From a virus (taxonomy: Duplodnaviria > Heunggongvirae > Uroviricota > Caudoviricetes > Herelleviridae), in IMG/VR virus record IMGVR_UViG_3300030514_000001, positions 1 through 64,000 of that record: a stretch of 64,000 nucleotides of DNA. The stretch is one strand, 5' to 3'. Below are positions 18,769 to 23,212 of this stretch, in pieces. Position 1 is the first letter of the stretch, and each line of letters begins with the position of its first letter. Both the position numbers and the translations under genes were made by a program. The notes under the pieces are model-generated. The model was not told the origin of the DNA. It searched no databases and saw nothing but the letters and a program-made list of their open reading frames with translations.

Positions 18769-18782
18769 TCTAGTATAACATA

Positions 18783-18810
18783 AGAGAGGCATATTTGTCT
18801 CTCTTTTTTA
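18783..18810 (+). terminator. rho-independent terminator
   Basis: AGAGAGGC...GTCTCTCT stem plus T6, after the SPFH gene. Confidence 0.65.
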
Positions 18811-18839
18811 TTGTTTACTAGTAGAGTTTGTGATATAAT
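18811..18839 (+). promoter_or_regulatory. sigma-A-type promoter (TTGTTT-17-TATAAT) for the DNA polymerase
   Basis: Perfect -10 with a 17-bp spacer after a terminator. Confidence 0.55.
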
Positions 18840-18861
18840 AGAAAGAGAAGGAGGAGATAGG

Positions 18862-21312
18862 TTGAAGATATTATTCGCACAGGAATACCTAAGGGAAAAC
18901 CACATGAAGAAGATGGAAGATGGAAGTCTTAAAAATGTGTTTCTCTCTACTAGAGGCGGTAAGTTATTAAAAAATCTTATTACAGATGGGTTAGAACTAA
19001 CAAACAAAGATTTTTATATTGATTACGCCTACTACGAAGTACCACAAGTTATTGGTAGGGATAAGAGTGGACGAGCCGTGAAGTATAAGCAGCCCGCCCA
19101 GAAAGACGCGAATCCATTGCATGAAGAGTTTAGAGCGCGTATCGTAAAAGAAAGACCAGACATTATCGTTCCTTCTGGTAATCTAGGTTGTAAAGCTCTT
19201 TTGGGAAAAGCATCTATTTCTACGATGCGGGGGGTTCCGCAAAAAGTAAGGATTGTACATAAGACAACTAAGACAGCAGATGCTCCAGACAACATTGTAG
19301 AAGAGTACAGACTATCAAAGGTTTTAAGAGATTTAGAAAACGATTTAAAAATAGCTATGCGAAAACTTGAAAATATCGATAACGGTATTGTCGGTGTCCG
19401 TGACCCGTATCATGAGTTAGTATTACGATATCCGCAAGTTCAACAAGAACGAGATGACGCAGCAGCTATCGTTGAAGGTCTAGAAATAGAAATAGCTGGA
19501 CTGAGACAGTCAGGTATAACACCAGACTTCGAATTACCTACTACTGAGATAGAAGAGAGCCATACTTGTTGGGTTCTACCGATGTACTCAATGGAGTATA
19601 TGCTAGTAAATCCGAAAATTCAGAATTTAGTAGAAGCAGATTTTGGTACACTTAAGAAATTCGTAGACGAAGGTGAAGATGCATTCGTAGCTAAGAAAGT
19701 TAAATACGAAGATGTAACTACTATCGAACGTGTACGAGAGATATTTACGAAGATTGTAAAAGAAGCTCCAGTAGTCGCATGGGATTTAGAGACAAACACT
19801 TTAAGCCCAGAACGAATAGGTGCAAAACCGCTAGTAATCTCTTTATCTTGGAAGGAAGGTACAGGTGCTACAATTCCACTGGAACACAAGGATTTTATGT
19901 GGCTCCCGGGACATCTAGCGGAGATTTATAAATACATAGAAGAGTTTGTAGGCGACGAAAATATAGTAAAGGTCGCGCATAATGGGAAATATGACCAAAA
20001 GTTCTTGAGGTTAACTAGAAATATTACACGATTCAAGAACCATCGAGATACAAAGACAATGTACTACTTACTTGTCAATCAGGATGTTAAAGGGTCATTA
20101 CGATTATCAGACCTAACATATGAATTTACAGATATGGGTGGATATGATAAAGCGTTAGAAGATTACAAGAAACAATACATAGAGGATTATAAAGCGAAAG
20201 AAAAAGCTCGTATCGACCAAGAGAAACTTGATTGGAAGTTAAAATGCGATGCAGAGCGAGAGCAAGCTAGTAACAAGATTAAAGAAATGAAAGCGGATAT
20301 CAATGCTGCAATCAAGGAGTTACGTTCTGAGCTAAAGGTTGTTAATAAGACAATCAAGAAGCTAGAGAAAGATGGACAGCCTCTTACAGAGTTCTTAGCA
20401 GGTAGACCGGAGTACTTAACAAACAGGATTGAAGAGCTTAAACAACAGCGTGATAGGCAAGCGCAAGAGTGGAAGTATGAGAAACCACCTACACCTAAAT
20501 GGGACGAAGTAAAAGCTCCTGTTAACGAGATAGATGGCGGAGACTTCAACTATGAATGGATTCCTTTATGGGAAATGCTTTCTCCATATGCTTCTGGTGA
20601 CGTTGATGTGTGTTTACGTATCTACAACCAATTAGCAGAGAGATGTACGAAGAAAGGTCTTAAGAAGATTGAAGACCTCTATAAAGGGCATTATCCGGAG
20701 CTTGTGAACGTTCTAGCTAAGATTGAGGCTACAGGTATCAAAACGGATATTCCGTACATCAAGAGCCTTGTAGAAGCTTATACGAAGGAAGAAAACAGAC
20801 TTATCGCTCTTATGCGTAAGTTCCCAGAGATTAAGCAACTAGAACAAGAAAAAGAAGAACTATATCGTATGGGGCTAGAAGAGAAGATGAAGCCTGTTAA
20901 ATTCCGTGATACGGAGATAGCGAAGTTACGTGACAAGTATAAGGATGAAGAGGATAGAAGGTTTAATCCGAACTCATCCGATGATAAGCAAAAAGTCATG
21001 TTCAAGTACACAGGTATTAAACTTCCATTCAACCGTGAGCATCTAGTGGATTCTGCTGTAGAGAACAATCTAGAAGAACATGAAATTGAGTGGTACCATT
21101 ACAAGTCTAACTCTGCGAATATGAAGTTCATAGCGAAAAACTACCCAGAGATGAAAGAACTAGCAGAGCTACTAGTAGAGTTCTCATTAGTTAAGACTCG
21201 TAAACAGAACTTCACATACAAGTTCTTAAGTATGGTAGACCATAATGATATCCTGCATGGCTCATTCAACAGTGAAGGTACAGAGACAAGCCGTTTATCA
21301 TCAGCGAACCCT
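18862..21312 (+). CDS. DNA polymerase, family A with 3'-5' exonuclease (exon 1)
   Basis: TTG start after AAGGAGGAG; Exo I VVAWDLETNTL, Exo II HNGKYDQKF, Exo III YASGDVDV; ends in ...ETSRLSSANP just before the intron; the 3' boundary is approximate. Confidence 0.75.
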
Positions 21313-22225
21313 AAAGTCATGTTGGGGTTCTAAAATCCTGTGAATTGACTGGAAACCCCTTAGAGCCTTACACACTCCTTTACACGGTGACGTAGTAAAT
21401 ATAGTAAAAGAGGTAAGGATTGGGCAATCAGCAGCCAAGCTACTTAGGGATAAGTAGAAGGTTCAACGACTAACGCATACGGGCTAGACCAGCCTATGAA
21501 GCGACACGAGCGCAGGAGAATCTAGTAATGTGGTGTTACTAGGAGGTAAAAATGTTTAAAGAAGAATGGAAACCGATAGAAGGTTTCGAAGGTAGATATG
21601 AAATTAGTAACAAAGGTAGGGTGTGGAGTAATCTACGTGGTAAAGAGCTAAGTCAGTGGAAAATCAACAGCGGGTATATGTCCGTTAGGCTCTTTATTGA
21701 TGGCAAACAGAAGAGTAAAACAGTACATAGGCTAGTAGCTAAAGCATTTTGTAGCGGTTATCGAGAAGGTCTAGAAGTGAATCACAAAGACACAGATAGG
21801 ACGAATAACAATTTCGACAACCTAGAGTGGGTTACTAGACTAGAAAATATCCGCGATATCGTAGAACGAGGTACTTTAAATACGCATACCGCAAGAGAAA
21901 AACTGGCTGCCGTATCTAGAAAGAAAGTAGATATGTATACAAAAGATGGTTCAGAATACATACGAACATACAATTCTATCAAAGAAGCTTGTGAAGAAAC
22001 CGGAGCGCAACAAGCGCATATATCTCGTGTCTGTCACGGTAAGCGACAAAGTGCCGGAGGTTATCACTGGAAATTTAACGATTCTGTAGATAAGAACAGA
22101 AGCGTATCAACTAAATGGAAAAAATAAAACAAACACCACATTACTGATTCAAGATATAGTCTATTCTTATATGAAAGTGTAAGAAGTAGTATTTAAAAGG
22201 TACTACGATAATATAAAAAAACATG
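21313..22225 (+). mobile_element. group I self-splicing intron interrupting the DNA polymerase gene (carries a homing endonuclease ORF)
   Basis: Pol reading frame stops shortly after the conserved ...SSANP; the downstream in-frame ORF resumes with QNMPRK (conserved PolA 'QNIP' motif); exon 1 ends in U and the intron ends in G; the 5' part is GC-rich and structured; an HNH ORF lies inside. Boundaries +/- a few nt. Confidence 0.6.
21552..22127 (+). CDS. intron-encoded HNH homing endonuclease (I-HmuI-like)
   Basis: N-terminal EWKPIEGFEGRYEISNKGRVWS, HNH core VNHKDTDRTNNNFDNLEWVT, C-terminal helix-turn-helix; strong RBS AGGAGGTAAAA. Confidence 0.8.
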   Translation: MFKEEWKPIEGFEGRYEISNKGRVWSNLRGKELSQWKINSGYMSVRLFIDGKQKSKTVHRLVAKAFCSGYREGLEVNHKDTDRTNNNFDNLEWVTRLENIRDIVERGTLNTHTAREKLAAVSRKKVDMYTKDGSEYIRTYNSIKEACEETGAQQAHISRVCHGKRQSAGGYHWKFNDSVDKNRSVSTKWKK

Positions 22226-23212
22226 CAAAATATGCCTCGTAAATCCGGGGACGTATATCGATTCGACTATAAACATCCAATCAAGCGTATGTTCATTTCA
22301 AGATTCGAAGGTGGAGCATTAATCCAGCTCGATTATAGCTCGTTAGAGTCTCGTGTAATGGCTTTAGACGCAATGGATATGGATATGATTAAATCGTTCT
22401 TCGATGGCGAGGATATCCACAGACAGACAGCAGCCTTAACGTTCCGTAAGCCACCGGAGGACGTTACAGACGATGAACGTACAAAAGCAAAAGCCGTATC
22501 GTTCGGTCTAGCGTATGGTGAGGTTCCGTTCTCATTCGCACCTAAACATAATATGACTGTAGAGGAAGCAGAAAAACTATTCGAAGACTTCTTCGCTGGG
22601 AAGCCGCGATTGAAAGAGTACATAGAAGAGAATAAAGAAATCGCAATGAAAGCTGGTAGTATCTCATGTCTACAAGGATACACTCGTAATCTACGAGATG
22701 TGTATTCCCAAGATAAGCAGAAACGTAACGGCGCATTACGTCAGGCTACCAACACACGTATACAGGGTTCTGGTGCATTCTTAACGAACAACTCATTAAT
22801 CTACATCAATAACCTAATTGAGAAAATGAACTTACGTTCTCGTATTGTACTAACAGTACACGATAGTATTGTAATCGATTGTCCACCAGAAGAGATTAAG
22901 TTAATGGCTCACATTGGTAAAACAGTCATGGAGAACTTACCTATCGATTGGTTGTGGATTGACTGGGAAGGGGAAAGAAGAAGATTCCCTATCACGGCTG
23001 ATGTCGAGATTGGTGTTACATACAATGATATGGTAGATTACAATCCAGACGATTTAGACACATTCGCGTCTGTAGCAGGTTACTGTAAATACCACGGAGA
23101 CTTAAAGAACGTTAAGAACTATAAGAACTCTAAGGCGATTACAGAAGAGAAGTACGATGAACTAGTAGCAGTAATTAAGTCAAATAAACCGCAATACCAA
23201 AAAATAGCTTAA
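22226..23212 (+). CDS. DNA polymerase, family A (exon 2)
   Basis: Starts QNMPRK...; contains motif C VHDSIVIDCP; no independent RBS. Confidence 0.75.
   Translation, partial: QNMPRKSGDVYRFDYKHPIKRMFISRFEGGALIQLDYSSLESRVMALDAMDMDMIKSFFDGEDIHRQTAALTFRKPPEDVTDDERTKAKAVSFGLAYGEVPFSFAPKHNMTVEEAEKLFEDFFAGKPRLKEYIEENKEIAMKAGSISCLQGYTRNLRDVYSQDKQKRNGALRQATNTRIQGSGAFLTNNSLIYINNLIEKMNLRSRIVLTVHDSIVIDCPPEEIKLMAHIGKTVMENLPIDWLWIDWEGERRRFPITADVEIGVTYNDMVDYNPDDLDTFASVAGYCKYHGDLKNVKNYKNSKAITEEKYDELVAVIKSNKPQYQKIA

Follow-up and report, generated by a model that had tools for sequence, protein, structure and literature searches.

The family-A DNA polymerase gene in a Herelleviridae virus genome (IMG/VR record IMGVR_UViG_3300030514_000001, positions 1 to 64,000, all of which is referred to here as the window) is split by an interruption that is very probably, with a rough probability of 0.85, a mobile group I intron of the Bastille lineage that splices itself and carries an HNH endonuclease gene. 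The element is of a kind already known, polymerase introns of the Bastille type that carry an I-BasI-like nicking endonuclease, and its only unusual trait is the loss of the terminal guanosine. The initial annotation of the window had proposed a polymerase gene split by a group I intron with an I-HmuI-like HNH endonuclease, a proposal now upheld by sub-threshold matches to the Rfam group I core, by 69-83% DNA identity to related phage introns and by compensatory changes in the helices. Boundaries, folds, covariation, homology, and selection on the ribozyme and the open reading frame (ORF) within it were computed here; actual splicing and nicking are argued from homologues. Coordinates are collected in Table 1.

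The limits of the intron were set by comparison with phages in which the gene is intact. The polymerase exons are 95% identical to the sequences of Bacillus phages B4 and B5S (Herelleviridae, Bastillevirinae, Bequatrovirus), and the gene is without interruption in these and in at least 20 other records (query coverage 79%, in two pieces); among the matches listed, Chotacabras is the sole GenBank phage that aligned over the full length, interruption included. Exon 1 is colinear with the uninterrupted B4 polymerase gene as far as ...GCGAAYCCN. The intron-less B4 allele reads GCGAATCCG/AACATGCAAAAT (longer, ...TCATCAGCGAATCCGAACATGCAAAATATGCCT, encoding SSANPNMQNMP), and the window allele reads GCGAACCCT, then 907 nucleotides (nt), then AACATGCAAAAT (longer, ...TCATCAGCGAACCCT, the 907 nt, AACATGCAAAATATGCCT). 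The 3' splice junction is 22219/22220, and the protein reads SSANP/NMQNMP, equal in length to bacterial Pol I. The 5' site given in the initial annotation, 21312/21313, with the interval beginning after U21312, was correct. Its 3' site, 22225/22226, lay 6 nt too far downstream, as both the B4 alignment and the P1/P10 guide indicate, and its statement that the interval ends in G is true only of that misplaced boundary, the last intron base being A. Thus, the comparison with intron-less homologues that it had recommended fixed the 907-nt gap and moved the 3' site, and its worry about a junction two residues short disappears.

Several other placements were tried and rejected. G22207 as the terminal guanosine would bring in a stop codon in frame (AUA AUA UAA; Chotacabras has UGA there). 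Chotacabras has a G four bases before the junction, where the window has A22215; its use would throw the reading frame off by the 4 nt added, and this G is absent from the window. Sites at the 5' end after C21318 (ANPKV/QNMP) or G21321 offer no U and no guide pairing, and moving both sites by one or two A's yields an identical mRNA and an intron that still ends in A.

Excision of the 907 nt would restore a single polymerase. The upstream frame was confirmed to stop after ...TSRLSSANP, and a downstream ORF with QNMPRK and VHDSIVIDCP was likewise found; the earlier description of the latter as in-frame holds after splicing and fails in the genome, where the exon 2 frame is shifted +1 relative to exon 1 (907 mod 3 = 1). 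The upstream ORF (18811..21333) has the C-terminal end ...TSRLSSANPKVMLGF before its stop codon (given also as ...GTETSRLSSANPKVMLGF), and exon 1 matches PF01612 (DNA_pol_A_exo1) and the first third of DNA_pol_A (profile positions 13-127). The downstream ORF (22223..23212) opens MQNMPRK and holds the remainder of PF00476 (profile 128-377, 193 bits), including VHDSIVIDCP. When the exons are joined at 22219/22220, the protein gives one PF00476 match (profile 13-377, 246.4 bits; 231.9 bits with the junction at 22225/22226), aligns without gaps to Taq RLSSSDPNLQNIP (also RLSSSDPNLQNIPVR), and is aligned with Klentaq across RLSS..PN.QN.P, DYS..E and VHD. Contiguous motifs A, B and C and a 3'-5' exonuclease domain, as expected of family A, are all present after excision. 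The likely start codon is TTG 18862, which sits 7 nt past GGAGG (18850-54) and agrees with the start proposed initially and with that annotated in Chotacabras. Both exons are intact and under purifying selection, the ratio of nonsynonymous to synonymous divergence (dN/dS) being 0.045 for exon 2.

The splice sites agree with an internal guide. The ligated exons AACCCU/AACAUG pair unbroken with CAUGUUGGGGUU (12 base pairs (bp) of P1 and P10), and as the P1 and P10 guides adjoin, the ligated exons rest on a continuous 12-nt guide. P1 contains the U21312-G21324 wobble at the 5' splice site and covaries with the exon among relatives; the P1 and P10 guides differ among 10 related introns, which represent four sequence types (window/Chotacabras, LBC2/LY2, Bastille and Wphvirus), each fitting the exons of its own phage. 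In the 40 nt around the insertion site, the window differs from B4 (L001 2796-2801) by two synonymous exon 1 differences only, AAC CCT (window 21307-21312) versus AAT CCG, both in P1, and the T at position -1 of the window exon provides the U for the P1 wobble. These differences would be consistent with co-conversion of flanking markers in homing or with selection for P1 pairing.

In the proposed mechanism, the pre-mRNA would fold into P1-P9, and an exogenous guanosine bound at the P7 pair G21468-C22161 would attack after U21312, held in P1 by the GGGGUU guide. The CAUGUU guide would bind the six bases that open exon 2 (P10), and the 3'-OH of U21312 would then attack the 22219/22220 bond. The product would be an uninterrupted polymerase of 1147 amino acids (aa; from TTG 18862), ...SRLSSANPNMQNMPRK..., with the predicted spliced junction ...GAACCCU/AACAUGCAA and the predicted tryptic peptide LSSANPNMQNMPR.

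A complete secondary structure from P1 to P9.1 was written, in which all pairs hold save a single C-A mismatch in P5b. The strands of P7, A(C)GACUA / UAGUCU, include the guanosine-binding pair G21468-C22161, and J8/7 (AAGAUAUAGUC) is an exact match to the consensus; this pair and J8/7 are invariant in all relatives and are therefore silent on covariation. Elsewhere, RNAalifold applied to nine ribozymes with the ORF removed found 27 pairs changed on both sides, P8 has five pairs with changes on both sides among relatives, and P3 has three compensatory variants. The MAFFT alignment of these ribozymes misaligned P1-P5 of the Bastille and Wphvirus introns and was used for P6-P9.1 only; covariation in P1, P10 and P3 was checked through explicit extraction of the strands. 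Between 21473 and 21510, 38 inserted nt fold into two helices stacked on each other (21474-76/21501-03 and 21481-85/21491-95), and relatives carry changes on both sides of these helices. In the Michel-Westhof classification, P7.1/P7.2 between P7 and the 3' strand of P3 is a mark of subgroup IA, to which the insertion points for this intron. Such an assignment fits the published observation that IA models match most introns of Bastillevirinae (PMC11878797). The first 239 nt of the interval are 44.4% G+C, compared with 37.4% for the window (top 2.2% of equal-sized windows), in keeping with the GC-rich 5' end that had been remarked upon initially.

The P3-P7 core (21343-21478, approximately intron positions 31-166) also gave DNA matches of 70-77%, each some 130 nt long, in phages that infect unrelated hosts (Alteromonas AD45 phages, Flavobacterium FpV3 and FpV4, and Staphylococcus and Pseudomonas phages), in regions that are mostly without annotation or labelled 'hypothetical protein'. 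This suggests that unannotated group I introns with the same type of core may be present in those genomes. No second group I match and no tRNA gene were found in a scan of the 64-kb window.

The closest characterised relative of the intron is that of Bastille, rather than that of SPO1. A group I intron with I-BasI was reportedly described in the Bastille DNA polymerase gene by Landthaler and Shub in 2003. Intron DNA identity is 83% to Chotacabras, 78% to LBC2, and 69% over 86% of the length to the I-BasI introns of Bastille, Hoody T, CAM003 and Anthony. For Bastille, the splice sites used are those that the authors entered in GenBank record AY256517, where the polymerase coding sequence (CDS) is joined at 686/1540 (...GCAGCGCCT/...AATTG/AACCTACAAAAT), with the codon position as in the window. 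The Bastille intron resembles that of the window in its gene and insertion point (..SSAxP/N.QN.P), its P1/P10 guide, P7.1/P7.2, ORF in the P8 loop, P9, P9.1 and tail of 12-13 nt. It differs in ending with the canonical G (...AAUUG, versus ...AAAAA in the window), in lacking about 45 nt of the P5 extension (ORF-less ribozyme of 268 nt versus 313 nt in the window), and in host genus (Bastillevirus, versus Bequatrovirus-like). For the Bastille polymerase intron, a 2025 study again confirmed splicing both in vitro and, from 10 min after infection, in vivo; the W.Ph. intron splices in vitro (PMC11878797). The I-HmuI (SPO1), I-HmuII (SP82) and I-BasI introns are all located at this position of the polymerase gene (PMC3428280), and the insertion site of the window falls within the RLSSxxP/N(L/M)QNxP motif common to the SPO1, SP82 and Bastille introns. 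The likeness to SPO1 and SP82 that had been drawn initially thus holds for the site and for the endonuclease family, HNH nicking enzymes of the same fold family, with the Bastille I-BasI intron closer; the SPO1 ribozyme gave no DNA-level match to the window intron among the matches listed, so the relation to SPO1 is one of site and endonuclease family, not of ribozyme lineage.

The closest GenBank relative is Chotacabras (MN153503, genes 141-143), the intron of which is also 907 nt and is unannotated as such, with an identical P1/P10 guide and the same A at the 3' splice position. Chotacabras shares 94-96% identity with the window in the ribozyme parts, 76% in the ORF (73% as protein) and 87-91% in the flanking exons. 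Phage vB_BceH_LY2 (LY2; L005, approximately 1461-1984) has a natural derivative of such an intron with the ORF deleted, 514 nt compared with 937 nt in its near-twin LBC2: only a 159-nt remnant, annotated 'I-BasI', is left, and the otherwise intact ribozyme gives a single-piece Rfam match (model 1-253, 43.1 bits).

The HNH endonuclease with a strong ribosome-binding site that had been predicted is encoded by an intact 191-aa ORF preceded by GGAGG. It matches NUMOD4 (PF07463, 54.5 bits), HNH_3 (PF13392, 43.3 bits) and I-HmuI_NUMOD-like (PF22083, 33.0 bits), all above cut-offs, and the I-HmuI chain of PDB 1U3E end to end (E 3e-35, residues 5-175); protein identity is 73% to the Chotacabras enzyme, 69% to that of LBC2, 64% to I-BasI and 42% to I-HmuI. 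When the protein is aligned with I-BasI and I-HmuI, H78 and N99 do not vary; they are the putative catalytic histidine and metal-binding asparagine, equivalent to H75 and N96 of I-HmuI, which the 1U3E study reportedly identified as such. The residue before the catalytic histidine is Asp in I-HmuI and Asn in the window and all I-BasI-like proteins. Comparison with three relatives gave dN/dS of 0.14-0.20, indicating that the gene is maintained. Translated from its own ribosome-binding site in the P8 loop, the product should, like I-BasI and I-HmuI, nick one strand beside the insertion site in intron-less polymerase alleles of co-infecting phages, after which recombinational repair would copy the intron into the nicked allele (homing). 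The candidate target, GCGAATCCG/AACATGCAAAAT, is present in intron-less B4, B5S, Spock and others (B4-type target sequence, GCGAATCCGAACATGCAAAAT).

A stretch of the endonuclease near the N-terminal NUMOD4 domain, VWSNLRGKELSQWKINSGYMSVRLFIDGKQKSKT (21552-21725, residues ~23-58), deviates from the I-BasI-like consensus, which is kept there by Chotacabras, LBC2, Bastille and Eyuki, and the synonymous divergence (dS) between the window and Chotacabras is approximately 1.0 for the endonuclease ORF, well above the 0.57 of exon 2. Part of the endonuclease gene may have undergone recombination or had a history unlike that of the ribozyme.

Several observations weigh against the reading of the interval as a group I intron that splices itself. 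At the Rfam gathering threshold (50 bits) there was no match; no convincing P9.0 pairing was found when helices were assigned; and the minimum free energy of the 5' half of the ribozyme is unexceptional (z = -1.56), so that thermodynamics alone would be insufficient to find it. The evidence for splicing in the window and in Chotacabras is sequence-based, the RNA data coming from homologues. The last intron base at the junction defined by homology and by P10 is A22219 (window tail ...AAAAA), and no G is present anywhere in 22208-22224, so the terminal guanosine (omega-G) of group I introns is missing. The guanosine-binding region of P7 with its flanks, as well as J8/7, is identical in A-ending and G-ending introns. 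The cofactor and, after it, the terminal G occupy a single pocket (PMC3984707), for which reason A22219 should strongly impair splicing at its second step.

The low Rfam scores have an explanation in the 594-nt loop insertion (21538-22131, mostly the HNH ORF), which splits the model. In E-value mode, RF00028 matched 21336-21517 with 42.3 bits (E 2e-7, computed for the 64-kb window as a whole) and, with 20.3 bits, 22151-22181; these two collinear partial matches, both below the gathering score, are what the search for a group I core advised in the initial annotation yielded. The Bastille intron is likewise split (47.5 + 24.7 bits); since this experimentally self-splicing intron is equally below threshold, such scores are expected of an ORF-bearing member.

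The terminal adenosine (omega-A) is not peculiar to the window. At the aligned position, the introns of Bastille (...AAUUG), LBC2 (...ACCGG), LY2 (...ACUGG) and Wphvirus/Eyuki (...AUAGAG) end in G, and the same terminal A is found in Chotacabras, in IMG/VR contigs L007, L008 and L009, and in metagenome contig L012 (L009 and L011 are one contig of 28,259 nt, counted once). These IMG/VR and JGI metagenome contigs (3300028270, 3300027272, 3300028264 and Ga0256899) come from a single set of related samples. As the A occurs in several records with exons approximately 91-92% identical to the window, it is not the sequencing error of one record. In the four contigs, identity to the window is 100% in the 3' ribozyme part and 96% in the 5' part, as against approximately 91-92% in the polymerase exons; an intron that is closer than its host gene fits recent horizontal spread by homing. 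Scans of viral and metagenome sequences for further relatives found one extra population only, and a P8-P7 signature scan of genome contigs gave no match.

The fold has been maintained in the lineage with omega-A. Of 19 ribozyme differences between the window and Chotacabras, none opens a helix: there are four compensatory pairs (P3 21337/21516 and 21339/21514, P5a 21371/21413, and P7.1 21475/21502), five wobble-preserving changes and two mismatch shifts in P5b, the remaining four differences lying in loops or the tail. Compensatory changes within this lineage indicate that selection on the fold persisted after the G was lost, and Chotacabras is an isolated phage, the essential polymerase of which must be expressed. 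Loss of the terminal G is thus apparently compatible with function, judging from these substitutions. The terminal G has been termed 'universally conserved', yet natural exceptions are on record: the ND5-717 intron of hexacoral mitochondria has A as its last base and its exons are perfectly ligated in vivo, and its authors proposed that omega-A may prevent hydrolysis at the 3' splice site and circularisation (PMC6545197; PMC8146996). ND5-717 was the only parallel to omega-A splicing found in a limited literature search. It resembles the window intron in its terminal A and large P8 insertion, and is unrelated in sequence, host and gene, being mitochondrial, vertically inherited and without a homing endonuclease. 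Because of this exception, omega-G is taken here as a near-universal trait and not as a strict criterion, and membership of group I is assigned by direct homology to the Bastille intron.

In the absence of a terminal G, ligation either tolerates omega-A or uses another site. Accurate ligation of the exons at 22219/22220 is judged the likelier outcome, if by a limited margin of confidence; the broader proposition, that a whole omega-A lineage (the window, Chotacabras and the four contigs) keeps a canonical pocket and ligates accurately at CCU/AAC in an essential gene, is given an even chance. The principal alternative is that the same intron slips to G22225, the first G 3' of the canonical site, with excision of 913 nt, a junction reading ...GAACCCU/CAAAAUAUG (CCU/CAAAAU), the protein ...SSANP/QNMPRK, two residues (N-M) shorter, and the tryptic peptide LSSANPQNMPR. 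The canonical guanosine-binding site in P7 would lead one to expect a G as its occupant, the reading frame would be kept, and the shortened protein is still a strong match to PF00476 (231.9 bits). This slip is nevertheless unlikely: G22225 is at the far end of the 6-bp P10, so its use would need P10 to be unformed, and no alternative P10 is available for CAAAAU; the window and Chotacabras have identical P10 guide strands; and the deletion of N-M would fall in the most conserved part of RLSSxxPNLQNIP, at a cost of 14.5 bits, where all intron-less and G-ending relatives retain the full-length motif.

Two further alternatives, in which the gene is either genuinely split or dead, are very unlikely even when taken together. 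A split enzyme made from unspliced RNA would consist of an N-terminal polypeptide of 824 aa, with ...ANPKVMLGF as its last residues, and a C-terminal one of 329 aa translated from ATG 22223. Both ORFs are open, the GenBank records of Chotacabras, LBC2, LY2 and Eyuki list each as a 'DNA polymerase' CDS of its own, and the missing terminal G could in principle prevent ligation. Such an arrangement is highly improbable, given that the break lies within a contiguous catalytic motif, that the homologous Bastille interruption is spliced, that the ribozyme is conserved above the exons with compensatory changes and with P1/P10 guides that follow the exon sequence, and that the 20 nt upstream of ATG 22223 contain no Shine-Dalgarno sequence, a point against separate translation of exon 2, whereas the HNH gene and the polymerase start each have GGAGG. 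Least probable of all is a decaying intron that no longer splices, in a polymerase gene that is non-functional because the phage is defective or the assembly faulty. A lesion such as the missing terminal G would be expected of a dead ribozyme, but the same A is present in the plaque-forming isolate Chotacabras and in four contigs with exons approximately 9% different, the exons and HNH ORF are intact under purifying selection, and compensatory substitutions have built up inside the omega-A lineage.

Table 1. Coordinates of the polymerase exons, the intron and its parts in the window
Feature	Position	Strand	Remarks
PolA exon 1	18862..21312	+	N-terminal region, 3'-5' exonuclease domain, start of polymerase domain; ends ...TSRLSSANP
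Group I intron, 907 nt	21313..22219	+	exact gap relative to intron-less B4; RF00028 matches; homologues in Chotacabras, LBC2 and Bastille
P1 hairpin and internal guide sequence	21307..21329	+	AACCCU (21307-12) pairs with GGGGUU (21324-29)
P10	21318-23 with 22220-25	+	CAUGUU pairs with AACAUG; 6 bp, contiguous with P1, covaries in relatives
Ribozyme 5' core	21336..21517	+	RF00028 model 50-157
P3	5' strand 21336-42, 3' strand 21511-17	+	
P4	21346-52/21428-33	+	
P5 and P5a-c extension	21356-21424	+	
P6/P6a	21434-62	+	
P7 5' strand	21466-72	+	
P7.1/P7.2 insertion	21474-21503	+	
P8 5' strand	21518..21537	+	pairs with 22132-22150, 19 bp, U21523 bulged; encloses endonuclease gene
Endonuclease Shine-Dalgarno sequence	21542..21546	+	GGAGG, 5 nt before ATG; conserved in all relatives
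HNH homing endonuclease gene	21552..22127	+	I-BasI/I-HmuI type, 191 aa, in P8 loop; Pfam and 1U3E matches
Ribozyme 3' part	22132..22206	+	RF00028 model 221-251
P8 3' strand	22132-50	+	
J8/7 and P7 3' strand	22151-61, extended by U22162	+	AAGAUAUAGUC
P9	22165-84	+	covariation
P9.1	22186-22206	+	covariation
3' tail	22207..22219	+	GAUAAUAUAAAAA; last base A22219
PolA exon 2	22220..23212	+	begins NMQNMPRK..., motifs A, B, C, then stop

The source of the window is, on the sequence of its polymerase gene, a Bastille-like (Bequatrovirus-type) Bacillus phage of the Bastillevirinae. The polymerase gene lies in a module of replication and nucleotide metabolism, with the large and small subunits of ribonucleotide reductase, a flavodoxin-like protein and an SPFH/band-7 protein as neighbours. 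A terminator-like hairpin (18782-18805; 10-bp stem and T-run) is located 3' of the SPFH/band-7 gene and 5' of the polymerase gene, and past it the sequence TGATATAAT (18831-39) looks by eye like an extended -10 element upstream of the polymerase start; a sigma-70 scan did not report this element, and the -35 region, TTGTTT, is weak.

The records of Chotacabras, LBC2, LY2, Eyuki, Smudge, BJ4 and Nigalana (L002, L003, L005, L006 and L013-L015) each contain two 'DNA polymerase' CDSs and a free HNH/I-BasI gene, with no intron feature and no joined CDS, and the upstream CDS runs into the intron to a spurious stop; in Chotacabras the annotation is of two 'DNA polymerase I' CDSs and 'I-BasI'. The polymerase of the window phage, Chotacabras, LBC2, LY2 and several Wphvirus phages should instead be annotated as one joined CDS with an intron. 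The Bequatrovirus group is thereby added to the genera of Bastillevirinae with polymerase introns, a genus that is not named in the main text of a 2025 survey.

The scope of these findings is modest, the missing terminal G being the sole point of broader interest, and either outcome at the 3' splice site would be informative. If ligation slips to G22225, the phage lives with a deletion of two residues in a highly conserved polymerase motif. If the exons are accurately spliced, the omega-A lineage is a natural experiment on whether omega-G is essential, easily tested in vitro, and would be, as far as a limited literature search indicates, the first known case, among bacteria and phages, of a group I intron that splices without omega-G. 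It would then offer a small, tractable system for the second splicing step without G, which might proceed through reliance on P10, with a protein helper, or through selection against hydrolysis at the 3' splice site and circularisation.

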